Below, piece by piece: positions 5,516-24,701 of a DNA stretch of 64,000 nt. Positions within the stretch are counted from its first letter, which is position 1. Each line of letters starts with the position of its first letter. The notes beneath the pieces were generated by a model that had not been told where the DNA came from, did no database searches, and was given only the letters and a program-made list of their open reading frames with translations. The stretch is from Candidatus Woesearchaeota archaeon (lineage in GTDB: Archaea; Nanobdellota; Nanobdellia; Pacearchaeales; GW2011-AR1). A program made the position numbers and the translations under genes. Location of the stretch: assembly GCA_964342415.1 (NCBI GenBank), contig CAYFFD010000002.1, forward strand, positions 125-64,124, in the 5' to 3' direction.

Positions 5516-6517
5516 ATGTTTTTAGGGCATGAAAATGATTTAGAAGAAGGAGAATGGAAGGTATTGAGTCATACGCCTGATCCTAGAATTTTAGTGAAAA
5601 ACAAAGGAAAATTTTATCAAATTTCTAATCTTTGTCCGCATCAAGGAAGTTTAATAAGACAAGGCTGTGGTAAGGGTGATGATGCTGTTTGTCCTTATCA
5701 TGCATGGTCTTGGGATTTGGATGGGAACCCAATAAGCTCAGGCACAACAAAAGATTTTTCTAATGAAAGTCCTTTAGAAAGAAAACAAGTTTATCGTTGG
5801 AAAGGTTTCCTTTTTGATGAACATCCATTGGGGAGGAGAAGTTTCTTTTTTGATGAACGTCCATTAGGAAGAAAAAAATCATCTTTACCAAGAATTTCTT
5901 CAGATGAACTCTTGCGAACCAAAGATCTTGAATTAGTGGATCAGCGAGTAGATCTGGTAAGAGCTTCTTATATAAATATCATGGATTTATTTTTAGATCT
6001 AGAACATATTCCAGTTGTTCATCCTGGACTTTATGATGAAATTAATATTCCAGATATTGATGATGTTGAATGGGATTATTTTGAAAATGGAAGTGTTCAA
6101 TTAGCACCATTTAGAGAAAATACAGGCTCGCCTGATTGGAACGCTCACACAATTAAAGATGATTTAAAATCAGGCTATGGAGCTATTTGGGTTGCTCTTT
6201 ATCCAGGTACAGTAATTGAATGGCAACCAGGAGCTTATTTTATCATGGAAAATGTACCTTCTCTTTCTGATAAAGATGAGACAGATGTTCATGTTTGGAA
6301 ATATAGAGATACAAAATATTCTGATAAAAATTGGGAAATTAATTCAAAGGTATGGGAAAAGGCCTGGGAACAAGATGTTGCACAATCAGAATTAATGAGG
6401 TCAACTTGGTATTTAAACGAGAAAAAAAATATGTATGAAAAATCTAAAGTACATTTTAGAGATTGGTTGAAAGAAAATGACCGACTTAAGGGCTCAAGCT
6501 TGGAGAAAAAAGTTTAA
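5516..6517 (+). CDS. Rieske [2Fe-2S] non-heme iron oxygenase, alpha-subunit-like
   Basis: CPH...CPYH Rieske ligands (LCPHQGSLI ... VCPYHAWSW). DLFLDLEHIPVVH matches the D-x3-D-x2-H-x4-H mononuclear-iron motif. Confidence 0.85.
   Translation: MFLGHENDLEEGEWKVLSHTPDPRILVKNKGKFYQISNLCPHQGSLIRQGCGKGDDAVCPYHAWSWDLDGNPISSGTTKDFSNESPLERKQVYRWKGFLFDEHPLGRRSFFFDERPLGRKKSSLPRISSDELLRTKDLELVDQRVDLVRASYINIMDLFLDLEHIPVVHPGLYDEINIPDIDDVEWDYFENGSVQLAPFRENTGSPDWNAHTIKDDLKSGYGAIWVALYPGTVIEWQPGAYFIMENVPSLSDKDETDVHVWKYRDTKYSDKNWEINSKVWEKAWEQDVAQSELMRSTWYLNEKKNMYEKSKVHFRDWLKENDRLKGSSLEKKV
5805..5876 (+). repeat. 36-nt tandem duplication (2 copies, 30/36 identical) inside the Rieske oxygenase gene
   Basis: gtttcctttttgatgaacatccattggggaggagaa / gtttcttttttgatgaacgtccattaggaagaaaaa, encoding GFLFDEHPLGRR / SFFFDERPLGRK. 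Confidence 0.85.
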
Positions 6518-7935
6518 TTTAATGACATTAATCTTGCTTTTTCTTTTATTAAATTCCAACCTTCTATTACATGTCTTTCTTGAACTTCAGTTTGCCCTAT
6601 AACAAATCTTATAGTATATTTGCCGTTCAATTTTGTATGTGTAAAATAAACCTCTCCTGTTTTATTTAAAATATTTAATAATTTTTCATTGTGTTCATTA
6701 ATTTTTTCTTCATCAGTCATGCCTTTAGGAATATGTCTGAAACAAATAGTGTTTAATTCAACTGGAGCCAATAATTCAAATTCGTTAGAAGATTCTATAA
6801 GATCTTTTATTTTTTTCGTTAATTCTAAATGATAACGAATTTTTTCTTGTAATCCCTTTACACCATAATTACGAATTACAAACCACAATTTTAATGCCCT
6901 AAATTTTCTACCTAATTGCAAACCCCAATCTCTATAATTTTTAACCCCTTGTGTTTGTGTTTTAAGATATTCAGGCAATATTTCAAGAGTTTTTATCAAT
7001 GATTCGAAATCTTTAACATAGTATGCTGAACAATCAATATTTGTGAATAGCCATTTATGAGGGTTAAAAGCAAAAGTATCAGCATCTTCGATGCCTTTAA
7101 TCATCCATTGTTTTTCTGGTAAGACAAGAGCTGAACCAGCTAGTGCAGCATCCACATGCATCCAAAGGTTGTATTTTTTACCAACTTTGCAAATACTTTC
7201 CATAGGGTCAATGGCTGTAGATCCTGTTGTTCCTATTGTTATAACTACTGCAAGAGGTTTAAACCCCTTGTCAATATCTTCTTTGATTGTCTTCTCTAAT
7301 TCTTCAGGAATCATTGCAAAATTTTTATCAACAGGTATTTTGCGTAATTGCTCTTTACCAAAACCAATAATCTTAACTACTTTTTCGATACTTGAATGAG
7401 CCTCTGAAGAACAATAAACAATAAATTTAGGTTGTCCTTGCAAACCCCTTGAATTAATTTCATAATTCGTAAATTTTTCTCTTGCAGTTAAAAGAGAGCA
7501 AGTAAGCCCATTTCCAACCGTGTCTTGTATGACCCCTGTAAAGTTTTTTGGTAAACCAATAATATCTCTAAGCCAATTCATAACGTGTTCTTCGAGCTCG
7601 GTTGCGGAAGGAGATGTTTCCCAACTCATACACTGAACATTAATTGCAGCTGTAATCATTTCAGCTAAAACAGATATTCTACTTGAATTCACTGGAAAAT
7701 ATGCAAAAAATTTTGGATGTTGCCAATGAGTAATCCCTGGCAAAATAATTTTTTCGAAATCAGAAAACAACTTTTTAAAATCCTCTCCATCTTGTGGTGG
7801 ATTTTTTGGAATCTGTGATATAATTTCACCCGGTTTAACTTGTGATTTCACAGGATATTTTTCAACTGAATCTAAATAATCAGACATCCAATCAATCAAT
7901 TCATGCCCAAATTTACGAAAGTTTTCTGAATCCAT
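6514..7935 (-). CDS. PLP-dependent group II decarboxylase (aromatic-L-amino-acid/tyrosine decarboxylase type)
   Basis: FAYFP, HVDAALAGSA and the NPHKW PLP-lysine motif; 473 aa. Its stop overlaps the convergent Rieske gene stop by 4 nt. Confidence 0.85.
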   Translation of the reverse strand: MDSENFRKFGHELIDWMSDYLDSVEKYPVKSQVKPGEIISQIPKNPPQDGEDFKKLFSDFEKIILPGITHWQHPKFFAYFPVNSSRISVLAEMITAAINVQCMSWETSPSATELEEHVMNWLRDIIGLPKNFTGVIQDTVGNGLTCSLLTAREKFTNYEINSRGLQGQPKFIVYCSSEAHSSIEKVVKIIGFGKEQLRKIPVDKNFAMIPEELEKTIKEDIDKGFKPLAVVITIGTTGSTAIDPMESICKVGKKYNLWMHVDAALAGSALVLPEKQWMIKGIEDADTFAFNPHKWLFTNIDCSAYYVKDFESLIKTLEILPEYLKTQTQGVKNYRDWGLQLGRKFRALKLWFVIRNYGVKGLQEKIRYHLELTKKIKDLIESSNEFELLAPVELNTICFRHIPKGMTDEEKINEHNEKLLNILNKTGEVYFTHTKLNGKYTIRFVIGQTEVQERHVIEGWNLIKEKARLMSLN

Positions 7936-7999
7936 TTTTAAAACTATTTTGTTTAAATAAATATATGACTTGATTTAAAAAATATTCCTTCAAACTGAT

Positions 8000-9682
8000 T
8001 CATTTTAAGAAATACTCTAGCTTATTGTCAAAATCTATTTTATCAAACTTAGAATCAAATTTCCCACTTACAAATAATTCGTTGAACACGTGTATATACA
8101 ATAAACAAAAAATAACCCATAAATGTTGCTTTGGGTTTTTCATCATAGTGTTTATGTAATCTCTGCTTAGTATGTTTTTTACAAAATCTGATTCAATGAA
8201 TTTTATGATTGCATCCCATTTGTTTTCAAACATGAATTCAATATCAATAGGAATGGGTAATTTTTGGATATGTTGTGCTCTATTTTTTCCTAAAATAGTT
8301 TTTACTTCTTTTTCATAATAAGCTCTATTAAAATTTAATTTTCTCAAGGGTTTTGCAAAGACTTTTGTACGTTCATTAAAAATAGGAAGGATGTCTTGTA
8401 CATTAAAACTATTAAAAATGAGTCCTTGCCTTATTGATCCTAGATATTGAAGATGATTGTAAAAGAGTATTTTCAATAAATCATTTTTTATATATTTCTT
8501 TAATAATGAAATTCTACTTATTCTTAATCCTTTAAATAAACCTTTTTTGAATAAAACATTTCTAAAATAATATAATTCATCTATCAAATTCTTTTTAAAC
8601 CATATGATCTCTGAACTTTTTTCTGTGCTAAAAAGAAATTCAGCAGACATCCCAGAAAATACTACCTTTGTATTTTTTTTAATTTTTTTTGCAAATAAAT
8701 TATATAAGGAACCATAAGGACTTTGAATTGCCCCCTCTAATCTCCATATAACATCTGGAAGATCATTTAATTCCTTGGAATCCATGAATTCTATTTTATG
8801 TTTAATATTTTTATATGATTTTGTTAACAGTTTAGTATTTCTAGTTTCATCTTGTTTCTTTCCCCCTATTGTTAAAGCAGTTACTTTTATATCTTTTAGA
8901 ATTGAGAGATAATACAAAGTTAAATTACTATCACAACCACTACTAAGAAGATGATTTACATTTTTTGAGCGCAATTCTTTAGCTATCCTTTCTATGTTTT
9001 GTTGTATTGACTTCATAACATTTTTCTTAGCAGATTCTATTGACACTTTTTTTTCTTTTTTCTTGAAATTTTTTATTTTAATTGATTTTTTTGAATAATT
9101 TATATGAAGATATTGCCCTATGATCAGTTTGTTAACGTGTTTTATTAAGGTTGAATTGGTTGGAGATGGTCCACTATATTTAACATAGGACAAAAAATCA
9201 TAAACAACAGGAATGTTCAGTTCTCTTTTAAAAGGCATTCTTTTCAAAATTTCCTTCAAAGAAGTGCTGAAAATTAATTTTTCTTTATTGAAAACATAAT
9301 AAACAGGTAGCGAGGAGCCAAAATGGTCTAATAAGATATATCCCTTGTTTGTTTTTCCATTCCATATAAATACTATAAAAGAACCCTCTAAAAAAGAAAT
9401 AAAATCCAATCCTTTTGTGCTATATAATTTTTCAACAATTTCAACATCATTTTCAGATTCTATTAAATATTTGGATTTAATTTCTCTTATATTTGATATG
9501 TAACCTAAAATTACACAAACATTATTATTTTGAGAATTATGAAAATAATTTTTTCCATGAGATTTAAAGCAATGTATTCTATCTACATGTAAATCTAAAA
9601 ATCCATTAGAAAAATTTTCTTCAGAATTTTTCTTAAGAGAACTAAATTTATTCCAATGTAAAGTTCCTGTGAGGATATTCAT
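8000..9682 (-). CDS. asparagine synthetase B-like adenylating enzyme lacking the N-terminal Cys nucleophile
   Basis: AsnB-like length and layout with a PP-loop-like LSSGCDSN. The N-terminus is MNILTG, with no Cys2. Confidence 0.65.
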   Translation of the reverse strand: MNILTGTLHWNKFSSLKKNSEENFSNGFLDLHVDRIHCFKSHGKNYFHNSQNNNVCVILGYISNIREIKSKYLIESENDVEIVEKLYSTKGLDFISFLEGSFIVFIWNGKTNKGYILLDHFGSSLPVYYVFNKEKLIFSTSLKEILKRMPFKRELNIPVVYDFLSYVKYSGPSPTNSTLIKHVNKLIIGQYLHINYSKKSIKIKNFKKKEKKVSIESAKKNVMKSIQQNIERIAKELRSKNVNHLLSSGCDSNLTLYYLSILKDIKVTALTIGGKKQDETRNTKLLTKSYKNIKHKIEFMDSKELNDLPDVIWRLEGAIQSPYGSLYNLFAKKIKKNTKVVFSGMSAEFLFSTEKSSEIIWFKKNLIDELYYFRNVLFKKGLFKGLRISRISLLKKYIKNDLLKILFYNHLQYLGSIRQGLIFNSFNVQDILPIFNERTKVFAKPLRKLNFNRAYYEKEVKTILGKNRAQHIQKLPIPIDIEFMFENKWDAIIKFIESDFVKNILSRDYINTMMKNPKQHLWVIFCLLYIHVFNELFVSGKFDSKFDKIDFDNKLEYFLK

Positions 9683-9741
9683 AATCTAAAAAATTAAAAA
9701 CGATTATTTAAAGATTTTGTCAATAAATAAGATAGAATTTT

Positions 9742-11166
9742 TTATTTCAATTCATTTAAAATAGATTTTACTTTTGACTCAACAACTGTGAATTTCCTAT
9801 TTTTCCTTTCTATTTTATCTTTAAATATTATTTTCATTTTTAACTTATTTATTTCGCCATTCGAAGAATTATTTAATAGGTTTTTGAGTTCTTTTATTAT
9901 TTTATCTTGACTAATGTTTTTTTCTTTAACAACAAGAATATCTAAACTATAATTTTTATGCTGGAGAAAATAAATGTCTTTAATTCCTTTAATATAAACA
10001 ATAGAAAAAAACAGTAATGAAGGAGAGATAGATTTTCCGTTGGGAAACATTACAAAATCGTTTGATCTTCCTTCAACATTCATAATTCTAGGATAAGTTC
10101 TTCCACAAGAACATTTCTTTTGTGTTATTGTAACAATATCTTTTATAGAATATCTTATCAAAGGAAATAAATAATTTACCAAACTAGTCATAACCAATTC
10201 ACCCTTCCCTTCAAAACCTTTCCCCTTAACTTCAGCTATTCCTTGAGGGGAAATATGCATACCCTTATGTTCATGGCACTTATAAGCCCTTATAGTACAT
10301 TCTGATGAGGCGTATCTATTAAAAACCTTACAGCCAAAATACTTTTCAATAAATTTTTTTTGAGAATCATAAAGAACCTCACTATGAGACAAAATACTTT
10401 TTATTCTTATTTTTTTCTTTTTCTTTTTAAGATATTTGACAAAAGCAAAATGTGATGATGGAAATCCTTCTATATGTTTTATGTTAAATTTTTTAATATA
10501 TTTAAGATATCCCTCAAAAACATTGTCTCCCATAATATCTGGCTTAAATGAAACTTGTTTTGTGACAGGATAGTAATTGTTAAAAATTATATGGCTTTCT
10601 GGAAGAAGATACATTTGTTCATTGACCACAGGTATATGTAAAACCACATCTTTACCCATTTCATAGCCAATTATTTCTTTAAAGTATTTGTCTCCTGCCC
10701 AATTTGCTCCAATACTTTCTTCATCATGATAGAACTTTATTGGCTTTCCACTTGTGCCAGAACTATCTCTATACATATTATTTTTATAATTTTTATTGAT
10801 AGCAAAAATCTTAGAATAATTTTTTAGTATATCATCTTTTGTAATAATTGGTAATTTTTCTAAATCTTTTAAGCTTTTAACATCAGATGGTTTGACTTTG
10901 TGTTTATCCCACAATTCCTTGTAAAAAGGCACGTTTTTATAAGCGTGTTCTAAAATTTTTTTTAATTTTTCGTATTGAAACTCATGTATTTTTTCAATAG
11001 GCCAATTTTCCATTTTTTTTAATAACTTATACCATTTTCTGTAGTCATAACTTCCAAATGCAATTCTTCTAGTAAAATCAACAAGTTTTGGTGAAGAGCC
11101 CCATAGTTTTAATAAAGGATAAGATAAATTCTGATGAAGCCAGCTTATTTGTTTAAAATAAATCAT
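9742..11166 (-). CDS. PaaK/CapK/F390-synthetase-type adenylate-forming ligase
   Basis: SSGTSGKPIKF matches the (T/S)SGTTGKP AMP-binding loop of phenylacetate-CoA-ligase-family enzymes; 474 aa. Confidence 0.7.
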   Translation of the reverse strand: MIYFKQISWLHQNLSYPLLKLWGSSPKLVDFTRRIAFGSYDYRKWYKLLKKMENWPIEKIHEFQYEKLKKILEHAYKNVPFYKELWDKHKVKPSDVKSLKDLEKLPIITKDDILKNYSKIFAINKNYKNNMYRDSSGTSGKPIKFYHDEESIGANWAGDKYFKEIIGYEMGKDVVLHIPVVNEQMYLLPESHIIFNNYYPVTKQVSFKPDIMGDNVFEGYLKYIKKFNIKHIEGFPSSHFAFVKYLKKKKKKIRIKSILSHSEVLYDSQKKFIEKYFGCKVFNRYASSECTIRAYKCHEHKGMHISPQGIAEVKGKGFEGKGELVMTSLVNYLFPLIRYSIKDIVTITQKKCSCGRTYPRIMNVEGRSNDFVMFPNGKSISPSLLFFSIVYIKGIKDIYFLQHKNYSLDILVVKEKNISQDKIIKELKNLLNNSSNGEINKLKMKIIFKDKIERKNRKFTVVESKVKSILNELK

Positions 11167-11207
11167 TTTTTTAAATTTCGAATTGTATATGTAGATATAA
11201 AAACTCT

Positions 11208-13019
11208 TTATAATTGTTTATTTTTAAAAATTGACTCAAGGTAGCTTTCTAATATCAACAAAGATAATAATTTCCCAGGATTTTTATCATCCAATACTAT
11301 TTTATCGACAAAGTCACTATTTAATATTTCTTTAATCAGTGCATTTTTTCGAAGTATTTTTTTTTGAAAATAGTTTGCATACTTACTTTTAAAAAACAAT
11401 TTGTAATAGGGCAATGAGGTTCGTTGTTTTGGTTCTTCAATCACAAAATTAGGTACTCCTATTTCTTTAGCTACTTTTCTTAAGAGTATTTTTTTTTGTT
11501 GATTATTAATAATAAATTTAGAGGGTAATTTATAGACATATTCAACAGAGTCTGAATGTAAATATGGCAATCTGACTTCAAGAGGATATGACATAGTCAT
11601 TCCATCTGCTTTTTCTAACATCTGCGGGCAAATGACCAGTCCCGGACCTAGCATATAGCGGAGTTTATTCATCAAAATATCTTCTGGTTTTCCATTTCCT
11701 TTAAATTCTTTGTCAAGATTTGACTGCAATTTCTTAAAAGGATTATCAAATTTATTTTTAAGTAATAATTTTAATTCTTTATAATTACATAACCCCATTA
11801 TTTCCGAATATTTTTCAACTAATTTGTGTTCTGAATTCAAATATAATGCTGGATTATTTGTTTTATATCCACAAAACAATTCATCTGCACCTTCTCCAGC
11901 AAAAACAGTTCTTTTTCCTAATTTTTTAGCTTCATCAGCAGCGAAAAACCATAATGGAAAAGAAGTAGACATAGTTGGGCCTCCTGGAAGATGAAGAACA
12001 AGATTATTGAAATTTTCTATAAATTTTTCTGTAGTGAATTCTTTTTTATTTAAATTTATTTTTAATGACCTTACTATTTTTTCAACTTTTTTAAATTCAT
12101 TTCCTGATTTTTCCGTATTGAAAAAATTAAAGTATTGTTTCTTTGTGTTAATTAATCCAGAACTGATACAGCAAACATTTTTTTTATAATTATAAAGAGC
12201 AAGACTTATGAGTGTTGAATCAATTCCTCCACTTAAAAATACACCTACATTTACTTCTTGTGGATACATTTCTTTAATTATTCTAGAGATGATATTTGTA
12301 TATTCTAATATCGCTGTTTTTTCACTGATATTGTAATCCACATAAAATTCTGGAATCCAATATTTTTTCACTTTAAATTTCTTTCCTGTTATTGATAAAT
12401 ATGAACCTGGTTGTAATCTTTTTATTCCTTCAATTATATGATTCAAGGAAAAACCCAAAGAAAAAAATTCAGCAAGACTGTTTGTGTTAATTTTTTTGTC
12501 AGTCAAATTAACTAAAGGCAAACTTTCTGAGGAGAAATATAGTTGGGAATTCTTTTTAAAATAAAAAAGAGGTTTTTCTCCAAATTTATCTCGAGCCAAC
12601 AATAATTTTTCTTTACCTGTTTCTCTTTGATCAAAAATAGCTATCGCAAACATTCCTTTAAATTTTGCAAAACAACTTTCTCCATATTCTTTATACGAAT
12701 GCATTACTACTTCAGTGTCTGATTTTGTACTAAATATATATCCTTTATTTTGTAAAATAGAACGTAATTCTTTGTAATTATATATTTCACCATTAAAAAT
12801 TAATACAATTTTTTTGTCATCTGAATAAAATGGATTCGATTTATTAGTTCTGTCTACAATTGAAAAAATATTTGAATATAATGCACATGTAGGATTAACA
12901 AATTTGTCACTATGGTCTGGACCTCTGTACTTTAATTGATTTTGTATTTGTTCAGCATTAAAAATAGCTTCTTTAGAAAGATTCTTTTTTAATGAATAAA
13001 CTCCATTTATGCTACACAT
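11208..13019 (-). CDS. asnB: asparagine synthase (glutamine-hydrolysing) family amidotransferase
   Basis: MCSINGV N-terminus (Cys2 Ntn nucleophile) and FLSGGIDSTLI PP-loop; 603 aa. Confidence 0.85.
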   Translation of the reverse strand: MCSINGVYSLKKNLSKEAIFNAEQIQNQLKYRGPDHSDKFVNPTCALYSNIFSIVDRTNKSNPFYSDDKKIVLIFNGEIYNYKELRSILQNKGYIFSTKSDTEVVMHSYKEYGESCFAKFKGMFAIAIFDQRETGKEKLLLARDKFGEKPLFYFKKNSQLYFSSESLPLVNLTDKKINTNSLAEFFSLGFSLNHIIEGIKRLQPGSYLSITGKKFKVKKYWIPEFYVDYNISEKTAILEYTNIISRIIKEMYPQEVNVGVFLSGGIDSTLISLALYNYKKNVCCISSGLINTKKQYFNFFNTEKSGNEFKKVEKIVRSLKINLNKKEFTTEKFIENFNNLVLHLPGGPTMSTSFPLWFFAADEAKKLGKRTVFAGEGADELFCGYKTNNPALYLNSEHKLVEKYSEIMGLCNYKELKLLLKNKFDNPFKKLQSNLDKEFKGNGKPEDILMNKLRYMLGPGLVICPQMLEKADGMTMSYPLEVRLPYLHSDSVEYVYKLPSKFIINNQQKKILLRKVAKEIGVPNFVIEEPKQRTSLPYYKLFFKSKYANYFQKKILRKNALIKEILNSDFVDKIVLDDKNPGKLLSLLILESYLESIFKNKQL

Positions 13020-13022
13020 TTT

Positions 13023-14171
13023 TTATTTAGAGAATCTTTTTTTTATTACTTTACGCCAAGATTTAAATTTACTCATTAAATAAACATACTTATAATCAAA
13101 CTCCAAATCTTTCCTTCCACATGACTTTGCAAACTTAATCACATTTCTCGCAAAATGAAGATGTTCTTTATCAGTTTTTAAACTCCGAACATGTTTTCTA
13201 TCTATTGGCAGAGGAAATGTAGAATATTTTTTTAATGCCCCAATCATTTCTAAAGTATACATTTCATAACTACATTTTCTACATCTAGAACAGTTTTTCA
13301 AACCATCAAATTTTTCGTAACAAACACGCAATCGATCATACGTTTCAGGCCATTTTGCAAGAATTTTAGTTTTATCAAGTTTTGAAGCCTCACTACCATC
13401 GTTAATAGATTCAAAATTTTCTGTAGACAATAAATGAACTGTGGGAAAATGTATTCCTCCTGGTGGAAGATAATCATAAGCATCATGTTCCGGAAAATAA
13501 AAATAGGAAATTTTTTCCTCGAAAATTAAAGCTATTCCTATAAGGGCCGTGCAGTGTGTTAAAGTCCAATCTATTGGTAGTCTATCATGAAAGGGTTTCA
13601 AATTTGTAGCTATTGGAATCATCCCTATCTTTAATTTATCCATCAATTTTTTGTAAGAATCTGATGTAATTTTATATGTTCTTTTATCTTCAAGAGGAAT
13701 GTCAAACCCATGAATAAATAGTGTGTGAGTTATTTGAAAATCTTTGTTAGGTTCATTTTTTGGAAGATGTTTCCAGAGAGTGTAAAAAGAATCCACTCCC
13801 CCAGAAAAAGCAGACATTACTCCTTTTCCTTTACTTGATTTATAATTAATATATCGGTCACATTTTATTTCTATGAATTTGAATTGGTCTGGAAACCAAA
13901 AATTAAAAACACGCTGATATTCTTTAAGATTATATGCTAAACGGGAAGACATTTTTCCTTTAACTTGAATATTTTCTCCAAGAAACATGGCAGGAAGCAG
14001 CAAGGAAACAAGAAATCCATTGGAACTATTTGAAATATATTTTTTGTATTTTTTTGGAGATTTGAACCATAAAGTTTCTGGGAGATTTAGATTTGGGGTT
14101 TCCCATTCTATTTTAGCAGAAACACAAACCTCATTCTTTGTTGTAGTTATTTTAGGAATATTTATTATCAT
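13023..14171 (-). CDS. uncharacterised PP-loop (SGGxDS)-like ATP pyrophosphatase-fold protein
   Basis: SAFSGGVDSFYT resembles the SGGxDS PP-loop. There is a C-terminal Cys cluster, CSRCRKCSYE. No family recognised. Confidence 0.45.
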   Translation of the reverse strand: MIINIPKITTTKNEVCVSAKIEWETPNLNLPETLWFKSPKKYKKYISNSSNGFLVSLLLPAMFLGENIQVKGKMSSRLAYNLKEYQRVFNFWFPDQFKFIEIKCDRYINYKSSKGKGVMSAFSGGVDSFYTLWKHLPKNEPNKDFQITHTLFIHGFDIPLEDKRTYKITSDSYKKLMDKLKIGMIPIATNLKPFHDRLPIDWTLTHCTALIGIALIFEEKISYFYFPEHDAYDYLPPGGIHFPTVHLLSTENFESINDGSEASKLDKTKILAKWPETYDRLRVCYEKFDGLKNCSRCRKCSYEMYTLEMIGALKKYSTFPLPIDRKHVRSLKTDKEHLHFARNVIKFAKSCGRKDLEFDYKYVYLMSKFKSWRKVIKKRFSK

Positions 14172-15340
14172 TTTAAATTATCTAAGTGATAAACATATTG
14201 TTTAGTAATTTCTTTCCAATCATATTTCTTTTCAGCTAATTCTCTAGCATTATTTCTTATTCGATTGTACAATTCTTTATTATTCATTAAAGTATTAATA
14301 GATTTAGCAAATTTTGTTGCAGAGTCTGCTATTAAAATATCCTTTCCATTAGTATATTCGATTCCTTCCGCGCCTTTTCCGGTAGATACAACAGGAGAGC
14401 CTGCTGCAAAGGAAGTTAATATTTTTAGCCTAGTTCCTCCTCCATCTAAAAGAGGGCAAATGAAGATTGAATTTTTAAAAAAAGGCCTTATATCTTTTAT
14501 CAACCCACAAAACTTTACATTTTCTAATCTTCCTTCTTTTTCAAACATTTTTTCATCATAATCCCCTATTATATTTATCTGTATATTCTTATCCAGTAAA
14601 GGATAAATTTTACTAAAAAAATACTTCAACCCTTTATAATTTGGTTCATAATAAATATACCCTACAAATAGCAAAGATAAAATATTTTTTTTAGAAAAAG
14701 AAACTTTTTTAAAATAATTGGTATCAACCCCATTTGGAACAACTAAAATTTTATTATGACCTAATTTTTTTAATCTTTCCTTGTCAATTTCGGAACAGCA
14801 AATCACGAGATCATAATGTTTAATCATGTTTTTTTCTTCCTTTCTCATTTTAATTTTTTCCCAGAAAGAATTTTTCATATGGCTATGAACATTGTGAAAA
14901 ACTAGTATTTTTTTCGCCTTTGTTTTAATATCTTCCAAAACAGGCCCCACATAAAATTGTTCAATTTGAATATAATCAAAATGTCTTTTTGCCAAAAGCT
15001 TTTCTATTTCTTTTTTAAACTTAAGATGAAAGTAATAATGCCTGCTAGTTATTTCTGATTTTAGGGGAAGGTTTCCAAATCTCTTCAAGTATTTTGTTTT
15101 AGAATAATGCTTTTTGTATTGGTTTTTTGTCATTTCAGAAAAAATTTTGCTTAAATCTTCAGGGATAATGACTTCACAAAATCTCCTTAATTCACCAAGA
15201 TCTTTAACCTTATCTTCCTTTGATGGTGTGACGAGTAAAGTTACTTTATAATGCTTCGATAACTCTTTTATTACATAATATGCCCTAACTTCTCTGTGTT
15301 GTGTGGGCACCATAGTACTCGTTATCAAAATAGATTTCAT
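14168..15340 (-). CDS. glycosyltransferase, GT-B fold (GT4-like)
   Basis: The C-terminal half (LLDGGGTRLKILTSFAAGSPVVST) is typical of GT1/GT4 donor-binding domains. 4-nt overlap with the downstream gene. Confidence 0.8.
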   Translation of the reverse strand: MKSILITSTMVPTQHREVRAYYVIKELSKHYKVTLLVTPSKEDKVKDLGELRRFCEVIIPEDLSKIFSEMTKNQYKKHYSKTKYLKRFGNLPLKSEITSRHYYFHLKFKKEIEKLLAKRHFDYIQIEQFYVGPVLEDIKTKAKKILVFHNVHSHMKNSFWEKIKMRKEEKNMIKHYDLVICCSEIDKERLKKLGHNKILVVPNGVDTNYFKKVSFSKKNILSLLFVGYIYYEPNYKGLKYFFSKIYPLLDKNIQINIIGDYDEKMFEKEGRLENVKFCGLIKDIRPFFKNSIFICPLLDGGGTRLKILTSFAAGSPVVSTGKGAEGIEYTNGKDILIADSATKFAKSINTLMNNKELYNRIRNNARELAEKKYDWKEITKQYVYHLDNLK

Positions 15341-15347
15341 TTTATAA

Positions 15348-16685
15348 TTAAAATTTAGCCCTTGATTTAATTGGAATTTTCAATAGTAAGATGTAAAGAA
15401 CCCAAGGAATTTTAATTAAATTTAATATTCTTAAATTTCCATTTATATAAACTTTCTTTAATTTGGTAAATCCATATAACATTTCTTCGTTTAAATTCAT
15501 TTTTTTTGTATCGGATAATAAAAAAACAAAGAAACTTAATAAAACATAGTAGTAAGATTTTAAAGTCATGTTCTTAGTGTGTATATAAACACAATTAAGA
15601 GACCCACCTATTTCAGCATATTTTCTACATTCTCCAGGTTCATGAAAATGCTTAACTATTGCCTTGTTATTATATCTTATAGTAAATCCTGAGTTTTTTA
15701 ATTGTTCAATAAAATCAATTTCATCATAATATATACTCTTATTAAAATAAATATTTGTATCAAATCTAAATTTGTTAAAAATTTCTCTCTTGAAGGACAT
15801 ATTGCAACCAAAAATTTCTTTATTTGGATTAAACAATTTGCTTGAATTTCTTATGTAAGATTTTCCTCCAACACATGCAACTTTCTTATTTTTTTCAAAA
15901 GTTTTTACTAATTCCTTTACCCAATTTTTATCCACATAACAATCATCATCAGTAAAGGCAACAATTTCTCCTTTTGCATAATTAATTCCTAAATTTCTTA
16001 CATAACATAATCCTTTATTTTTTTTATTTCTAATTATTCTTAGATTTTTAAATTTTCCTTTGAAAGATTTTGCTAGTTCTAAAGTATTATCTTTTGAAGC
16101 ATCGTCAACTATTATTACTTCAAAATTTTTGTAATTGAGTTTTTTCAAAGATTCTAAAGCATATTTTTTGAGAGTTTTTGCCCTATCTCTTGTACAAACT
16201 ATCACAGATACAAATGGTTCGTTTTTCATGTTAGAGATTTTGGTTTTTTGGTAGTTGTGCTCTTGTAAAAATTTTGGAATTACTTCTTTTAAATAGAAAT
16301 TTAAATATTTTTTCTTAAATTCTTTAGCACTCCATTCTGATTTTAATTTTTCTATATCTTTTGAATTCCAAACATAAGTATAGGTTAGAACTTCTTTTCC
16401 ATCAAAATTAACTTTTAACTCTTTTCTATAATAGCATTCCTTAGGCTCAAATAAATCTATTATTTTTAGACTTTCTTCATCAACATTAAAAAGAATTTTT
16501 CCTTTAACTTGGTTTCCTTCAAAAGTTGTAATTGCAGGATATGTCCTAGGCTTTTTACCATCAAAGATTTTAAATCTTTTGAAGTTTTTGAGGATCGCAT
16601 TTTTAGTTTTAAAGTTTCTATTTGTTAAAGCAAAAACCACTTCTGGAAAAATCAAACTTCCATATACAAAGATATTTTTTTTCAT
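15348..16685 (-). CDS. fusion protein: AIG2/gamma-glutamyl(amine) cyclotransferase-like domain + GT2 glycosyltransferase
   Basis: The N-terminal ~110 aa (VYGSLIFPEVV ... ECYYRKE ... YTYVW) looks AIG2/GGCT-like. The GT-A GT2 motifs VSVIVCTRDRA, IIVDDASKDNT and FTDDDC follow. The C-terminus is hydrophobic. Confidence 0.7.
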   Translation of the reverse strand: MKKNIFVYGSLIFPEVVFALTNRNFKTKNAILKNFKRFKIFDGKKPRTYPAITTFEGNQVKGKILFNVDEESLKIIDLFEPKECYYRKELKVNFDGKEVLTYTYVWNSKDIEKLKSEWSAKEFKKKYLNFYLKEVIPKFLQEHNYQKTKISNMKNEPFVSVIVCTRDRAKTLKKYALESLKKLNYKNFEVIIVDDASKDNTLELAKSFKGKFKNLRIIRNKKNKGLCYVRNLGINYAKGEIVAFTDDDCYVDKNWVKELVKTFEKNKKVACVGGKSYIRNSSKLFNPNKEIFGCNMSFKREIFNKFRFDTNIYFNKSIYYDEIDFIEQLKNSGFTIRYNNKAIVKHFHEPGECRKYAEIGGSLNCVYIHTKNMTLKSYYYVLLSFFVFLLSDTKKMNLNEEMLYGFTKLKKVYINGNLRILNLIKIPWVLYILLLKIPIKSRAKF

Positions 16686-17677
16686 TTTTTATTTGTATCT
16701 TTTACTATTTCTAAAAAAGCTTTTTTAAACTTCTTCAACGAATCTTTTTTATTAGGTATGAGATGGATATTTTTTTTCAATAACTTTTTTGCTTTGTTTT
16801 CATTTTCTAAAATATATTTTATTTTGTCGTTTATTTCGTAAAAGTTTTCAGAATTGTTTACAATAAATATTTTGTCAAACAGGTAATTTGTCCCTATATT
16901 CTTTGATATTATAGGGAAGCAACCACAAATGGCGGATTCCATAGTTGTTGTAGGGTGCGGATCGTGATCAGGCAAATGAATAAGAAACTTGCACATGGAA
17001 TAATATTTTTCAACATCTTTTCTTTTTCCAAGATAAACTATTTTCTTGTGGATTCTAGCCATTTTTTTTACATAGTTTCTTTGTGCCCCTTCACCAATTA
17101 CAATAAATTTTTCAAAATGTGGACATTGAAGCCCAAATTGAATTATTCTTTTTATATTTTTATCAGGATCCAAACGTCCAACATACAATCCATAGTTTTT
17201 CCTCATAACATTCGTAAGGTATACTGCTTTTGAGAATGGAGGACATATTTTTATGGGCACATTCAAAAAAGAAGGAATGTATTTCTTATTTTCTTCTGAA
17301 ACAGTAATAATCCCATCTATCGCTTGTAAGAGAGTATTCCATTTTTTCCAAGATGTTCTATTATGTTTATGCAAACTATACAAAAATAAATCTGCATCAA
17401 GATATATAATTTTTATATTTTTATATTTTTTCTTAAGTGCTAGGGCGGTAGGAATGGGCAAACCCCCATCAACCAAAAGAATATCTGATTTGGTGCGTGT
17501 ATAAAAACTAAGCATAAAAGAAAGAATCGCAAATAGGCCACCTCCCAAAACAGAATGATTCTTTGCGACAGAAGCAAGCCCTTTAAATGGAATTATTTTT
17601 ATCTTTGCATTAATTACTCGCGCGAAACCAAGGTGTGCTTCGTGTGGAGATTGTGATAAAAATAATATAGAGTTCAT
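16682..17677 (-). CDS. glycosyltransferase, GT-B fold (GT1/GT4-like)
   Basis: GRLDPDKNIKRII and TTTMESAICGCFPIIS resemble the C-terminal half of GT4 enzymes. 4-nt overlaps on both sides. Confidence 0.6.
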   Translation of the reverse strand: MNSILFLSQSPHEAHLGFARVINAKIKIIPFKGLASVAKNHSVLGGGLFAILSFMLSFYTRTKSDILLVDGGLPIPTALALKKKYKNIKIIYLDADLFLYSLHKHNRTSWKKWNTLLQAIDGIITVSEENKKYIPSFLNVPIKICPPFSKAVYLTNVMRKNYGLYVGRLDPDKNIKRIIQFGLQCPHFEKFIVIGEGAQRNYVKKMARIHKKIVYLGKRKDVEKYYSMCKFLIHLPDHDPHPTTTMESAICGCFPIISKNIGTNYLFDKIFIVNNSENFYEINDKIKYILENENKAKKLLKKNIHLIPNKKDSLKKFKKAFLEIVKDTNKK

Positions 17678-18966
17678 AATCTGATTTTTTCTTTAATTTT
17701 TTTTACAAAAACTTTTGTGTCAAACTTTCTTGCCTGCTTTATACATGCATCTTTGTATTTTAGTGGATTCTTGCCAAGCTTTTTGACAGCTTCAATAATC
17801 TTTTTCGGACTGATGTTATCTATCAATATTCCAGTATTTCCATTAATGACTGTCTCTTTGTAACCTCCTTCGTTAGGGGCTATGACTGGCTTGCCTGAAG
17901 CCATTGCTTCAACAGGAGTCATACCAAAATCCTCATCCTCAGCTGTAGTAATAAATCCAGCACAGTTGGCATATAATACGCGTAATTTTTCCTCGCTTAC
18001 AACGCCTTTGTAGATAACGTTTCTAGGTAATTTCTTTAGTATTTTTTCTGAGTACTTTTTATGATGTTCCTCACATTCCCCTACTATGACTAATGTTTCG
18101 TTAGGCAATCTCCGAAATGCCTCTATTTGCATTTCCACTCTCTTTGCAGGGATCATTCGATTGACAGATAGCCAAAAATTACCATTTTTTCTGTGCGCAA
18201 AATAATCACAGTCAACTGGAGGATAAATAACTAAAGATTCTCTACCATAATGTTTTTGCACTTTTTTCTGTATGTTATGACTGTTTACCACAATTGAATC
18301 AATGGCGCGAGTCGCGGCAAAGTCAGATTTTTTAGACGGACTGTATTTCTTATAGGTAGTGTAGGTACTAAACATTTGCCATATATTCCCCCTAAGTCCC
18401 ACTTTCATTTCTCTATATCTTGCCGCAATAAATCGTGGTAAGAAATCAAATATGTAGTCAATTTTTTTAGAAATAAATGGGGGAAGTAATCGTTTTTTTG
18501 TCAATTTGTTCTTTGCCGTTAGCACGAGATTGTAAATAGTTTTTTGGTAAAAAGAGGGGATGCGCTGCCACTTAGGCGGTGTATGGCAATACCATATATT
18601 AGGTGTGTGCTTTTTCGCTGCATAAATAGAAAAATTTCCTGAAAAAATGAAAAAATCATATTGTGAAGAAAGATCACATTCTAAGAATCTTTTTTTCCAC
18701 ATAACAGAAAGCATAAATGGAAAAAGCACTTTTTCACCAAGAGGAATGACTTTTACATTACCAAAACCAAGTTTTTTCAAAACTTTTTGATCGACTTCTG
18801 CAGCTATCACATCACAACCGATGCTATTTGCCAATATAAGTGCAAGCTTTTCGGAACCGCCAATTGTCCTAAAGCGATCGTGAAAAACCGCAATTCTACG
18901 CGTTGTTACATTTGATTGTTTTTTCATAATAGATTTCAGTTTGTGTAGCGAGCTCATCAAAATCAA
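17674..18966 (-). CDS. glycosyltransferase family 4
   Basis: EDFGMTPVEAMASGKPVIA is an E-x7-E motif. The start is probably the internal MKKQSN (nt 18927), because the longer ORF overlaps the upstream gene by 71 nt. Confidence 0.8.
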   Translation of the reverse strand: MILMSSLHKLKSIMKKQSNVTTRRIAVFHDRFRTIGGSEKLALILANSIGCDVIAAEVDQKVLKKLGFGNVKVIPLGEKVLFPFMLSVMWKKRFLECDLSSQYDFFIFSGNFSIYAAKKHTPNIWYCHTPPKWQRIPSFYQKTIYNLVLTAKNKLTKKRLLPPFISKKIDYIFDFLPRFIAARYREMKVGLRGNIWQMFSTYTTYKKYSPSKKSDFAATRAIDSIVVNSHNIQKKVQKHYGRESLVIYPPVDCDYFAHRKNGNFWLSVNRMIPAKRVEMQIEAFRRLPNETLVIVGECEEHHKKYSEKILKKLPRNVIYKGVVSEEKLRVLYANCAGFITTAEDEDFGMTPVEAMASGKPVIAPNEGGYKETVINGNTGILIDNISPKKIIEAVKKLGKNPLKYKDACIKQARKFDTKVFVKKIKEKIRL

Positions 18967-20053
18967 ACTTGCTGGCTATTCGTTTGCCTTTTTCACCCAT
19001 CTTTTTCAGCAACTGATTATTAAGTAAAAGTTTTCTGACTGCCATCGCAAGTCCTTTTGGTGTTGCTTCTGCCGTTAAACCATTCCCATTTACAAAATTG
19101 GTGGCTCTGTTCCATTTACTTCCAGCCACAACGATTGGAATTCCACATGCGCATGCTTCTAGAGTTGTAAGCGGAAATCCTTCGAATACAGAGGGAAGTA
19201 CAAATATCTTAGAGGATTTAAGATATCGAAAAACCTTCTTCCTGTCTTTGATCTCTCCAACAAAATAAATGTTTTTTCTTATGCCAAAAATCTTGGTTAG
19301 GTGCAAAAGTTTCGGCATTTTGTACCCTTCACCTATAATACATACTTTAATTTTAGGAAAATCTTTGAGTAATAAATGCACCGCACGAATAAGCAATTCA
19401 GGATTTTTTTGATAGACAAGCCGGCCGACAAATATGACATCAAACTTCTTTGTTTTGAATGGCGTTGCCTCACTAATCATACTCTTGTCAATTCCATTAT
19501 AAATGACCTCTATGTGTTCTTTACATATACCTTCTTTCACAAGATCTCGTCGGACAATTTCTGATGATGCAATATTAGATAGGGAAAATTTTAAAGTTTG
19601 CTTTTCAAAAGCAGCAGCAATAGTGCCAATTATATTACCGTGCATCTCGCTTAAATATTCTTTGCCAAAATGTTGTTGCCAAGTGAATACAAGAGGAGTT
19701 CTTTTAAGATAAGATATTAATTTTGCAGCATAGCAGTTAAGAAAAACAAAATGAGCCACATCAATAACATCAAATTTTTTATTTAATAACCAAAAAAAGA
19801 TATTTATGGAAAAGAATATTTGATTGAAAAAAATATTCCATGTGCCAATGAATGGAAGATCTCTATACTTTGCTATGCCATGGATCCTCATTCCATTTAG
19901 TGTAATTGAATCATTTCCACCCCATCTCTTAAACCCGCAAATATGAACATCGTGGCCTTTTTTGGCAAGCCGTTTGTATATTTCATAATTTTGTATTTCT
20001 GAACCGCCAACAGTATATGGGAATATGGGGTCTGTAATAAATGCAATTTTCAT
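18896..20053 (-). CDS. glycosyltransferase family 4
   Basis: GRLVYQKNPELLIRA and FEGFPLTTLEACACGIPIVV (E-x7-E). Confidence 0.85.
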   Translation of the reverse strand: MKIAFITDPIFPYTVGGSEIQNYEIYKRLAKKGHDVHICGFKRWGGNDSITLNGMRIHGIAKYRDLPFIGTWNIFFNQIFFSINIFFWLLNKKFDVIDVAHFVFLNCYAAKLISYLKRTPLVFTWQQHFGKEYLSEMHGNIIGTIAAAFEKQTLKFSLSNIASSEIVRRDLVKEGICKEHIEVIYNGIDKSMISEATPFKTKKFDVIFVGRLVYQKNPELLIRAVHLLLKDFPKIKVCIIGEGYKMPKLLHLTKIFGIRKNIYFVGEIKDRKKVFRYLKSSKIFVLPSVFEGFPLTTLEACACGIPIVVAGSKWNRATNFVNGNGLTAEATPKGLAMAVRKLLLNNQLLKKMGEKGKRIASKFDFDELATQTEIYYEKTIKCNNA

Positions 20054-20063
20054 TTTAAAAATT

Positions 20064-20795
20064 TCACCTCAATCTTTCTATAACTAAAAATCTTAAATGC
20101 CTAAAACCATCTCTAAAAGTTCTTAGTTTTGATTTTCCAATCCTTTTATGGTACACAATCGGGATTTCTTTTATTCTTAGTTTATTTCTTTTTATTCTGA
20201 CAAGCATTTCTGATGAGAACTCCATTCCTTGTTCTTTTAATTGTAATTTTTTTAATATTTCTTTTCTAAAGCCAATAAAACCTGTGCTTGATTCTGAGAC
20301 TTTAATATTGAATAATACTCTCAACAATAAATTAATTCCAGGATTCCCAATGTATTGGTGCAAAAAAGGCATGGCTCCTCTTTTTATTTCTCCTTTAAAT
20401 CTAGAACCAAGAACAACATCATTATTCTGTAAATGAACTAAAAATCTTGGTATTTCATTAAAGTCATATGAATTATCTGGATCTCCTAAAATTAAATAGT
20501 CTCCTTTAACATGTTTAAATCCTGAGAGATATGCATTCCCATACCCTTTTTTTAGTTCAAAAATATATTTTATCTTAAATTGCTTTGCTATTTTTGCAGA
20601 ATTATCTGTACTTCCATTATCTACAACAATAACTTCTCCATCAATTTCATTTTTTTCAAAAACATTTTGTATTTTTTGAATACTTTGTCCTATAGATTCC
20701 TCTTCATTAAGACATGGAAGAACAACAGAAACTTTTATCATATTTCTGAAAAATAGAATTGAGATATATAAATATTTCTTTATTAAAGAAATCAA
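20064..20795 (-). CDS. glycosyltransferase family 2 (Dpm1/AglD-like dolichyl-phosphate sugar synthase type)
   Basis: VSVVLPCLNEEESI, VVDNGSTDNS and GDPDNSYD. The start overlaps the nusA stop by 4 nt. Confidence 0.8.
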   Translation of the reverse strand: MISLIKKYLYISILFFRNMIKVSVVLPCLNEEESIGQSIQKIQNVFEKNEIDGEVIVVDNGSTDNSAKIAKQFKIKYIFELKKGYGNAYLSGFKHVKGDYLILGDPDNSYDFNEIPRFLVHLQNNDVVLGSRFKGEIKRGAMPFLHQYIGNPGINLLLRVLFNIKVSESSTGFIGFRKEILKKLQLKEQGMEFSSEMLVRIKRNKLRIKEIPIVYHKRIGKSKLRTFRDGFRHLRFLVIERLR

Positions 20796-21208
20796 ACAAT
20801 CTTTAATTCTTTGTTAAAATAATCTCTTGAAATTTTTTGTAGCTCAAAAAGCCGCCTTTTGTTTCTTCCTATTAAAGCTGCCTTACTTTGCGATCCTGCT
20901 GTCAGAATTATTTCATTATCTTTAACTTCAAGATCCTTAAAGGTAACTGGATTAACAATTGATTCTATAAATTTTTTCACTTCAAGAATCCCCTCAGGAT
21001 TTGAGATCACCTTTACTCTTTTGTTAAGAATCTCATTTATTTTTCTTATGTTTCTTCCCTTCTCACCTATTGCCCTTGAAACAAGAGTTTTCGGAACGCA
21101 GAAAATTATTGCATTATTATACGCAAAACAAAACCTTGTGCTTATTTGTGTGATTTTTCCAAATAAATTCAAATACCTCATATCCTGCATATTAATAGTC
21201 CGTGCCAT
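20792..21208 (-). CDS. nusA: archaeal NusA-like KH-domain transcription factor
   Basis: 138 aa with two KH-like modules (AIGEKGRNIRKINE; ALIGRNKRRLFELQ). It sits directly after rpoA, as in the conserved archaeal RNAP operon. Confidence 0.8.
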   Translation of the reverse strand: MARTINMQDMRYLNLFGKITQISTRFCFAYNNAIIFCVPKTLVSRAIGEKGRNIRKINEILNKRVKVISNPEGILEVKKFIESIVNPVTFKDLEVKDNEIILTAGSQSKAALIGRNKRRLFELQKISRDYFNKELKIV

Positions 21209-21214
21209 GTTTGT

Positions 21215-24700: not shown

Positions 24701-24701
24701 T

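Follow-up and report, generated by a model that had tools for sequence, protein, structure and literature searches.

A probable mosaic surface-glycan island with several predicted carboxylate-to-amide steps in an archaeal genome fragment

Gene content and layout of the island

The window analysed here, i.e. the whole stretch of 64,000 nucleotides (nt) from contig CAYFFD010000002.1, is a low-GC (30%) archaeal fragment in which a set of genes for building, exporting and modifying a glycan lies between positions 1457 and 20795. The core of this island is an array of 11 minus-strand open reading frames (ORFs) running from 20795 to 6514. The last five of these, which we call the tailoring genes, encode a PP-loop protein, two AsnB-like proteins flanking a PaaK/CapK-like ligase, and a decarboxylase dependent on pyridoxal phosphate (PLP); a preliminary description of the locus had treated them as one coherent module. 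Our analysis indicates that the locus is probably a lineage-specific, mosaic, ABC-transporter-dependent surface-glycan island with several ATP-dependent carboxylate-to-amide steps. Its five tailoring genes have come together from separately inherited pieces and do not form a conserved pathway.

All 11 ORFs are present and point in the same direction, and their coordinates confirm the tight spacing that had been described, with intergenic gaps ranging from -71 to +64 nt; the decarboxylase gene is separated from the Cys-less AsnB-like gene by the widest of them. Gaps among the first eight genes range from -71 to +10 nt, with only 3 nt between the PP-loop gene and the Cys2 AsnB gene, and the spacers before the ligase, the Cys-less AsnB-like gene and the decarboxylase are 41, 59 and 64 nt long, respectively. 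Each of these three spacers contains T5-6 runs and TATA-like AT-rich boxes; a promoter/terminator reading of them was dropped as non-discriminating, because all three look alike in a genome of 70% AT. Profile searches agreed with the family previously named for each gene. The genes of the array, from first to last, are (E-values unless given in bits):

20064-20795, minus strand: GT2 glycosyltransferase, AglJ/dolichyl-phosphate-hexose-synthase-like, first gene of the array (PF00535, 1.5e-27)
18896-20053, minus strand: GT4 glycosyltransferase (Glycos_transf_1, 1.2e-34; Glyco_transf_4, 1.4e-19)
17674-18966, minus strand: GT4-like glycosyltransferase (Glycos_transf_1, 4e-32); TTG start in the ORF list, 427 amino acids (aa) according to gene callers
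16682-17677, minus strand: GT-B glycosyltransferase (Glycos_transf_1 PF00534, 1.2e-13)
15348-16685, minus strand: fusion of an N-terminal GGACT/AIG2 (gamma-glutamyl(amine) cyclotransferase-like) domain (residues 5-114; GGACT, 4e-17) with a GT2 domain (residues 160-306; Glycos_transf_2, 7.5e-35)
14168-15340, minus strand: GT4 glycosyltransferase (Glyco_trans_1_4, 7e-20; Glyco_transf_4, 5e-14)
13023-14171, minus strand: PP-loop ATP pyrophosphatase of an unnamed family with QueC-like motifs (FSGGVDS and C284-x9-C294-x2-C297-x2-C300)
11208-13019, minus strand: glutamine-dependent AsnB-family amidotransferase with Cys2 (TIGR01536, 311 bits, cutoff 267)
9742-11166, minus strand: PaaK/CapK-like adenylate-forming ligase with an SSGTSG motif (PDB PaaK 4r1l, 2.4e-30)
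8000-9682, minus strand: AsnB-like protein with no Cys2 nucleophile (Asn2 clade), PP-loop SSGCDS (GATase_7, 1e-11; Asn_synthase, 1e-9)
6514-7935, minus strand: aromatic-L-amino-acid (DDC-type, group II PLP) decarboxylase, last gene of the array (PF00282, 358.6 bits)

The remaining genes of the island are:

3094-3846, plus strand: Wzm, ABC-2 permease (ABC2_membrane, 1.5e-11)
3848-4591, plus strand: Wzt, ATPase (ABC_tran, 6e-25)
4578-5465, plus strand: polysaccharide pyruvyl transferase (PS_pyruv_trans PF04230, 2.3e-19)
5516-6517, plus strand: Rieske non-heme-iron oxygenase, alpha subunit only, 333 aa (Rieske, 7e-12; Ring_hydroxyl_A, 1.7e-4)
1457-2986, minus strand: polytopic membrane protein, possibly GT-C-like, divergent from Wzm (DUF6541, 8e-6, sub-threshold and the sole match)

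All five had been placed on the strand opposite the array, which is correct for Wzm, Wzt, the pyruvyl transferase and the Rieske oxygenase but not for the GT-C-like protein, whose gene lies on the minus strand. The array contains six glycosyltransferases i.e. one GT2, four of GT-B/GT4 type and the GGACT-GT2 fusion; the GT2 protein that opens it scores 119 bits against the AglJ model TIGR04182, below the cutoff of 325. Adjacent Wzm and Wzt genes inside a glycosyltransferase cluster are the hallmark of an ABC-transporter-dependent glycan pathway, and the Wzt encoded here (247 aa) is without the C-terminal carbohydrate-binding (Wzt_C) domain. Both the gene families and their tight spacing support the description of the locus as a glycan-biosynthesis island. 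The four consecutive genes for ATP-dependent carboxylate-activating enzymes (PP-loop protein, Cys2 AsnB, ligase and Cys-less AsnB) are also of the types originally proposed, and no characterised cassette matches the gene combination.

In the fusion protein, only the GT2 part was matched in related loci, the GGACT part giving no tblastn match in any of them. The GGACT family cleaves gamma-glutamyl-amines, and its fusion to a glycosyltransferase is unusual in an island that may deal with amines.

Proteins identical to those of the island are found on 13-14 contigs from several marine metagenomes and one metagenome-assembled genome (GCA_977368645.1); because they recur in this way, the island is no assembly artefact. 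It is real and stable in the population. MetaClust names trace the organism to the mesopelagic 0.1-0.22 µm size fraction of TARA station 039, and the nearest named relatives of two island proteins are from Candidatus Woesearchaeota. We infer that the host is probably an ultra-small, DPANN-like marine archaeon, which fits the 0.1-0.22 µm fraction.

Linkage of the tailoring genes in related genomes

The synteny of relatives showed the five tailoring genes to be largely unlinked, which contradicts the coherent module previously envisaged. Only one pair recurs among them, a PaaK-like ligase gene with an AsnB-like gene immediately behind it; the pair is found in three independent loci (L015, L101 and L127), and the AsnB-like gene of L015 is Cys-less.

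For the ligase we examined three loci with members of its close clade and 43 metagenome loci of at least 8 kb with more distant CapK-like relatives. The close-clade loci contain radical-SAM/SPASM, DegT and GT2 genes; homologues of the decarboxylase, PP-loop protein, Rieske oxygenase and pyruvyl transferase were found in none of these three loci, one of which has only ∼0.3 kb of downstream sequence, and in none of the 43 more distant ones. In the latter set, homologues of the window glycosyltransferases are present in 23 of the 43 loci and an AsnB homologue in five (directly downstream of the ligase in L101 and L127). Around the closest relatives of the Cys-less AsnB (three loci) there are DegT, ATP-grasp, B12-radical-SAM, radical-SAM and GT2 genes, and none of the other four tailoring genes. 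For the PP-loop protein, five other loci with homologues (among them L002, L003 and L177) contain no homologue of either AsnB or the decarboxylase, and one of them (L178) has a distant PaaK-like gene, 24% identical to the ligase.

Relatives of the decarboxylase were taken from the best 80 loci among GTDB species representatives. All are bacterial and 33-63% identical, with those of Ignavibacteria, Spirochaetales and Bacteroidota at 55-63% and others down to 33%. Save for generic ABC ATPases, homologues of the other island genes are absent from the 10 kb around these relatives, and no neighbour family is common to more than 10 of the 80. Because the best 80 relatives are all bacterial and stand alone, the decarboxylase looks like a bacterial acquisition. 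GC content at third codon positions (GC3) is uniform across the island at ∼0.2, so this compositional test gives no signal of recent transfer and the transfer is therefore not a recent one.

A PP-loop family with QueC-like motifs is linked to pyruvyl transferases

The PP-loop protein has no sequence match in Pfam, NCBIfam or the PDB. This includes the absence of any NCBIfam match at E≤0.01 to a WbuX/PseA-type N-acetyl-sugar amidotransferase, a model presumed to be part of that library. Its homologues number at least 467 and occur in both archaea and bacteria (including Woesearchaeota, Anabaena, Anaerolineae and Acidimicrobiia), all annotated as hypothetical and without a Pfam domain. In an alignment of 39 family members FSGGxDS, C284, N293-C294, C297 and C300 are invariant. 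The Cys motif of the window protein, CYEKFDGLKNCSRCRKC, mirrors that of E. coli QueC, CYNGFKGDGCGHCAAC, and lies at a similar distance from the PP-loop; the protein thus has the motif combination of QueC i.e. an SGGxDS PP-loop with a downstream C-x8/9-C-x2-C-x2-C zinc motif.

We compared the AlphaFold2 model of the protein (predicted local distance difference test, pLDDT, 95) with the PDB using Foldseek, and no entry was returned at E≤1e-3. The best match was Cap9 (9nto_B), with an E-value of 0.08, a probability of 0.95 and a TM-score of 0.62 on the target; the other fold neighbours, likewise non-significant, were TilS, NcsA, ThiI and the nitrile synthetase ArtA (E 0.31). Assignment of the protein to QueC itself was tried and rejected. 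There is no match to the QueC profile PF06508, hhalign of the family against E. coli QueC aligned the PP-loop alone (22 columns, probability 6%), and hhalign against the QueC-like neighbour in L001 gave no meaningful match. We therefore do not regard it as a demonstrable member of the QueC family, and predict from its motifs that it performs a QueC-type carboxylate adenylation and amidation.

The most solid new lead from this analysis is the link between this QueC-like family and pyruvyl transferases. A PS_pyruv_trans gene lies within 10 kb of the PP-loop gene in the window and in four of the five other loci, and is adjacent to it in three of these; ABC-2/ABC exporter genes lie near the PP-loop homologues in L002, L003 and L177. 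L177 (184-7358 of ERZ27251236 k141_63014) is the most informative. It encodes orthologues of the window Wzm (55% identical), Wzt (49%) and pyruvyl transferase (42% over the full length), with a conserved N-terminal fragment of the GT-C-like protein at its edge, and has three tandem PP-loop paralogues ahead of Wzm. Its Wzm-Wzt-pyruvyl transferase operon converges directly on glycosyltransferases, with neither a Rieske oxygenase nor a decarboxylase at the junction. From this context in relatives, above all in L177, we conclude that the PP-loop gene belongs functionally with the pyruvyl transferase/exporter module.

The full gene order in L177 is PP-loop paralogues, Wzm, a weakly matched sulfotransferase-like gene, Wzt and pyruvyl transferase, and the expansion of PP-loop paralogues beside the exporter hints at several carboxylate targets or specificities. 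In L002 (10001-13555, Anabaena cylindrica UHCC 0172) and L178 (10001-13665) the pyruvyl transferase gene lies between two members of the PP-loop family, the second copy being further removed from the window protein, with 24-31% identity. Virus-classified IMG/VR contigs (L181-L184) encode four distant relatives (24-28% identical). In three of these four loci a gene for a phage integrase, for a Wzy_C O-antigen polymerase/ligase-like protein or for a SASA carbohydrate esterase is close by, and tblastn found no pyruvyl transferase in any of the four; these relatives may take part in prophage-borne glycan modification.

The pyruvate ketal is the sole carboxylate whose installation is encoded locally. 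Because of this, and because of the recurrent pairing with pyruvyl transferases, we propose the ketal carboxylate as the substrate of the QueC-like enzyme, which would turn it into an amide or nitrile. This is a hypothesis to which we give a low probability; our literature search found nothing on QueC-like enzymes with pyruvyl transferases.

The two AsnB-like proteins and the CapK-like ligase

The Cys2 AsnB had been called canonical, and this holds for part of the protein. It starts with MCSING and so has the Cys nucleophile of class II (N-terminal nucleophile, Ntn) amidotransferases, and a MAFFT alignment showed that Cys2, Asn-Gly-Glu and Asp98 are retained. In the same alignment, however, the columns of E. 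coli AsnB Arg49, Thr322/Arg325 and Lys449, residues presumed to serve the Asp site, are occupied by Ile, Pro/Ser and Gly. The protein scores 216 bits against the E. coli-type AsnB model PRK09431 (cutoff 499) and 238 bits against TIGR03108, the WbpS/WbqG type (cutoff 817). We predict from these features that it converts a carboxylate of the glycan or of a glycan precursor to a primary amide.

It is very unlikely that this enzyme is instead the housekeeping asparagine synthetase of the cell, present in the array by chance. Such a role would fit the score against the generic model TIGR01536, which exceeds its cutoff, and the retained Cys2, Asn-Gly-Glu and Asp98. The missing equivalents of the presumed Asp-site residues and the operon spacing of 3 nt to the PP-loop gene argue against it, as does the score far below that of the E. 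coli-type model; moreover, AsnB paralogues encoded in glycan loci are established uronamide synthases (PMC7468200). The AsnB proteins encoded beside the ligases in L101 and L127 keep Arg49 and Lys449 and are missing the Thr-Thr-x-Arg motif.

The second AsnB-like protein starts with MNILTG and has no Ntn Cys nucleophile. A word-indexed search returned three relatives, and an exhaustive HMMER search covering 1.84 billion representatives returned 81 clusters at E≤1e-30. Of the 70 full-length members of this clade, 68 begin with something other than MC, many of these with MN, the conserved N-terminus being MN(L/I)L.G; many keep an S-x-G-x-D-[ST] PP-loop, and the position of E. coli Glu348 is not conserved. 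The window protein scores 60 bits against TIGR03108 (cutoff 817). This Asn2 AsnB-like clade without the Ntn nucleophile is rare, real and uncharacterised, and its sequence features predict a glutaminase-dead enzyme that joins a carboxylate to an amine via an adenylate.

The ligase has no Pfam match and falls below every NCBIfam cutoff. It belongs to the ANL/PaaK-like adenylate-forming superfamily, as shown by its (S/T)SG(S/T)(S/T)G motif and its similarity to 4r1l, and is not phenylacetate-CoA ligase PaaK (TIGR02155, 112 bits against a cutoff of 646; NF041878, 123 against 700). Its close clade consists of 20 relatives, 43-70% identical and mostly archaeal-looking, in which the SSGTSG adenylation motif is nearly invariant. 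We predict that it forms an amide on the glycan.

The recurrent ligase and AsnB-like pair could also be read as activating a small free acid, for transfer to the nitrogen of an amino sugar or for the making of an N-acyl side chain. A DegT gene lies within 5 kb in all three of the closest Cys-less AsnB loci and in two of the three close-clade ligase loci, together with radical SAM enzymes, and there is no uronic-acid-forming gene among the window ORFs examined; both observations favour N-acylation. However, there is no DegT gene among those window ORFs either, and VpsH, the one relative of this ligase type from a glycan cluster that has been tested by genetics, attaches an amino acid to a uronic acid. 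We regard N-acylation as rather unlikely. It is highly improbable that genes 6514-13019 make a diffusible small molecule, e.g. an N-acyl arylalkylamine, and not a glycan decoration. PaaK-like ligases and homologues of the Cys-less AsnB (beta-lactam synthetase, lasso cyclases) are common in natural-product pathways, and the PDB relatives of the ligase include the PaaK-like amide ligases 6siw and 6wuq. On the other hand, the genes for a carrier protein, nonribosomal peptide synthetase/polyketide synthase, thioesterase or dedicated exporter are lacking, the genes in question are embedded between glycosyltransferases and Wzm/Wzt, and relatives of the ligase occur in glycosyltransferase-rich loci.

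Radical SAM/SPASM, B12-radical SAM, DegT, ATP-grasp and GT2 genes recur around Asn2 AsnB-like or ligase genes on the DPANN-like contigs L011-L016, a neighbourhood that may represent an uncharacterised sugar-tailoring toolkit in its own right.

The decarboxylase and the Rieske oxygenase

The last gene of the array encodes a bona fide DDC-type enzyme, for which we predict activity on aromatic amino acids. The PF00282 match (gathering score 27) covers profile positions 1-373 of 375, and the protein matches DOPA decarboxylase 7xin in the PDB at 4e-133. FNPHKW (PLP Lys), SEAHSS (His192) and HVDAALAG (Asp271) align with 7xin and 6eem, and the catalytic-loop Tyr (KNYRDW, aligned with plant DYKDW) marks a decarboxylase and not a Phe aldehyde synthase. 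An identity as MfnA (TIGR03812, 80 bits against a cutoff of 299) or PanP (TIGR03799, 119 against 606) was rejected, and the DDC type given in the preliminary description is supported. We dropped a substrate prediction from the Gly/Ser position that presumably sets specificity in plant aromatic amino acid decarboxylases, since by our own residue counting this position is Asn, which is uninformative and not predictive.

The decarboxylase gene is convergent with the Rieske oxygenase gene, which it overlaps by 4 nt. In the Rieske protein the iron motif D-x3-D-x2-H-x4-H is intact as read from the sequence. Its top PDB matches are carnitine monooxygenase CntA (2e-9) and SxtDIOX/SxtT, and its top NCBIfam match is GbcA (1e-8); these enzymes act on nitrogen-containing substrates, although the matches are weak and mostly driven by the Rieske domain. 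A single-sequence structure model was unusable (pLDDT 33).

It is plausible, though doubtful, that the decarboxylase supplies an amine to glycan tailoring, the evidence being adjacency in a single lineage i.e. its gene shares the strand of the array, follows the Asn2 AsnB-like gene after 64 nt and keeps this place in all of the population contigs. The weak Rieske matches to enzymes acting on nitrogen-containing substrates would fit such a link, as would the C. jejuni capsule precedent discussed below. The fuller proposal is unlikely: the CapK-like ligase, the Asn2 AsnB-like enzyme or both would join an arylalkylamine, made by this decarboxylase of bacterial ancestry and perhaps hydroxylated by the Rieske oxygenase, to a glycan carboxylate as an amide. 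A literature search found nothing on aromatic amines on glycans.

There is a substantial chance, a little short of even, that the decarboxylase, and probably the Rieske oxygenase with it, are passengers at the convergence point of two glycan operons. The product would then be a free biogenic amine of the tyramine, tryptamine, phenethylamine or dopamine type, made for an unrelated purpose, and the amide-forming enzymes would use ammonia, glutamine or ordinary amino acids. The best 80 relatives of the decarboxylase favour this, being all bacterial and having no glycan, AsnB, ligase, PP-loop or Rieske gene within 10 kb, as does the L177 junction described above. The 64-nt spacer upstream of the decarboxylase gene also fits, as it contains a T6 run and a TATA-like box, TTTATTTAAA, ∼20 nt before the ATG; however, the spacers before the ligase and the Cys-less AsnB gene resemble it. 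Strand, spacing and the constant position of the gene in every population contig speak against a passenger, as does a GC3 equal to that of its neighbours, so that the acquisition was not recent.

Other features of the window

The genes for rpoB, a single-ORF rpoA and a KH/NusA-like protein occupy 20792-28052 on the minus strand. The KH gene (20792-21208) shares 4 nt with the GT2 gene that opens the array (20064-20795), which suggests that read-through into the glycan array from the core transcription operon (rpoB-rpoA-KH) is possible. The largest RNA polymerase subunit (21215-24700, minus strand) is a single ORF of 1161 aa with Rpb1 domains 1-5. The A' and A'' subunits are normally separate genes in archaea, and here they appear to be fused. 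Large proteins with Laminin_G_3 (concanavalin-like) domains, up to 689 aa long, flank the island (148-1035, plus strand, in the window, and upstream in L004/L008); these candidates for surface proteins may carry the glycan or act as adhesins. The thymidylate synthase (30411-31505, minus strand) is 364 aa long, yet matches a 266-position Pfam profile from end to end, which implies an insertion of ∼100 residues.

A model for the island

In the proposed scheme, for which we infer the substrates and products of all of the island enzymes, the six glycosyltransferases would build a lipid-linked glycan that Wzm/Wzt would export by the ABC-transporter-dependent route. The pyruvyl transferase, the QueC-like PP-loop protein and Wzm/Wzt would form a conserved module that probably installs a pyruvate ketal and amidates a glycan carboxylate at the expense of ATP, the target possibly being the carboxylate of the ketal itself. 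The Cys2 AsnB would convert a carboxylate to a primary amide using glutamine, in the manner of WbpS/WbqG yet from outside that equivalog. The CapK/VpsH-like ligase and its Asn2 AsnB-like partner would either place an amine or amino acid onto a carboxylate or acylate a sugar amine. The decarboxylase and the convergent Rieske oxygenase, at the meeting point of the two operons, may supply or modify an arylalkylamine for the ligase step, a suggestion drawn from their adjacency.

Several points weigh against this reading of the island as one that carries out several carboxylate-to-amide steps on a surface glycan. The functions of all of the island proteins are predicted, and the kinship of the PP-loop protein to QueC rests on motifs and non-significant fold hits. 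There is no UDP-sugar dehydrogenase, other uronic-acid-forming gene or DegT aminotransferase among the window ORFs examined, a set that leaves out the smaller ORFs beyond 28 kb. Given the T-runs and TATA-like boxes in their spacers, the last three genes could be transcribed separately. Finally, the decarboxylase is unlinked to glycan genes in all of the best 80 related loci, and no decarboxylase lies near any examined relative of the other four tailoring genes.

Strain-specific glycan islands with odd tailoring genes are common, and if neither the ketal-amidation nor the aromatic-amine proposal holds, this is one more such island. To our knowledge, next to nothing has been established about the surface glycans of DPANN-type archaea, through which these cells probably attach to their hosts and are recognised by viruses. 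The island is of interest since it gathers four different ATP-dependent carboxylate-activating enzymes, two of which, the QueC-like PP-loop protein and the Asn2 AsnB-like protein, belong to nameless families with no close solved structure. If the QueC-like family acts on pyruvylated glycans, this would explain what hundreds of hypothetical proteins encoded in polysaccharide loci of bacteria and archaea do, and with at least 467 family members ketal amidation would, if true, matter more widely than the aromatic-amine proposal. If the decarboxylase does feed the ligases, the island would illustrate how an amine-forming enzyme gained by horizontal transfer can be built into glycan tailoring; aromatic amines would join the known glycan substituents, and the product would be the first glycan to bear one. 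The leads most worth following are the QueC-like family, the Asn2 AsnB-like clade and the possible recruitment of the decarboxylase into glycan tailoring.

Comparison with known systems

There is a known glycan-tailoring analogue for each of the enzyme types in the island save the two unnamed families, i.e. the QueC-like PP-loop proteins and the Asn2 AsnB-like clade. For the ligase, the comparison is with VpsH/CapK and is one of type and context, as in both cases a PaaK-like adenylate-forming protein is encoded within a polysaccharide cluster. Deletion of V. cholerae VpsH (PaaK/CapK-like) abolishes the addition of glycine, as an amide, to N-acetylgulosaminuronic acid (GulNAcA) in a lipid-linked disaccharide (PMC13463779). 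The window ligase differs in belonging to a small, mostly archaeal-looking clade and in being flanked by two AsnB-like genes; furthermore, the VpsH pathway is Wzx/Wzy-dependent, whereas the island uses Wzm/Wzt.

The AsnB homologues PGN_1234, WbpS and WbqG convert uronic acids to uronamides (PMC7468200). Like the Cys2 AsnB of the window, these enzymes (TIGR03108, eps_aminotran_1) are of the AsnB family, have a Cys nucleophile and are encoded in a glycan locus. The window protein differs in its score (238 bits against the 817 of that model) and in having no uronic-acid pathway genes nearby.

The PP-loop protein shares with QueC, Cap9 and ArtA an SGGxDS PP-loop followed, ∼160-180 residues further on, by a CY..F.G...C..C..C zinc-type motif, and these enzymes convert a carboxylate to an amide (and then to a nitrile) via an adenylate. 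It differs from them in the lack of a Pfam QueC match, in Foldseek E-values of 0.08 or worse, in an extra N-terminal domain of ∼115 residues and in its context, which is glycan and not queuosine biosynthesis. The Cys-less AsnB resembles beta-lactam synthetase, CarA and the lasso cyclases, which have an AsnB fold without the N-terminal Cys and form an amide from an adenylated carboxylate without glutamine. It differs from the lasso cyclases in score (35 bits against 525), in having no natural-product context and in forming a distinct clade.

A precedent for the logic of the amine-supplying step is the C. jejuni HS:2 capsule glucuronamide cassette, reported by the Raushel laboratory, with the PLP decarboxylase Cj1436, the aminotransferase Cj1437 and the amide ligase Cj1438. 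There, reportedly, a PLP decarboxylase makes the amine and an ATP-dependent ligase joins it to a capsule uronic acid. That ligase is reported to be of the ATP-grasp type and the amine to be ethanolamine or serinol phosphate, whereas the window has PaaK-like/AsnB-like candidates and a DDC-type aromatic decarboxylase; the comparison is one of logic.

The N-glycans of Methanococcus provide an archaeal precedent for the amide decoration of a glycan carboxylate; the enzyme that attaches the threonine is reported to be AglU/MMP1084. That system depends on AglB-type N-glycosylation and a different gene set, and we identified no gene for AglB in the set of window ORFs examined. The threonine is amide-linked to (di)aminomannuronic acid derivatives (PMC11407970). 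In the type 1 capsule of S. aureus (CP1) it is taurine, an amine and not an amino acid, that is amide-linked to N-acetylgalactosaminuronic acid (GalNAcA) (PMC12043029).

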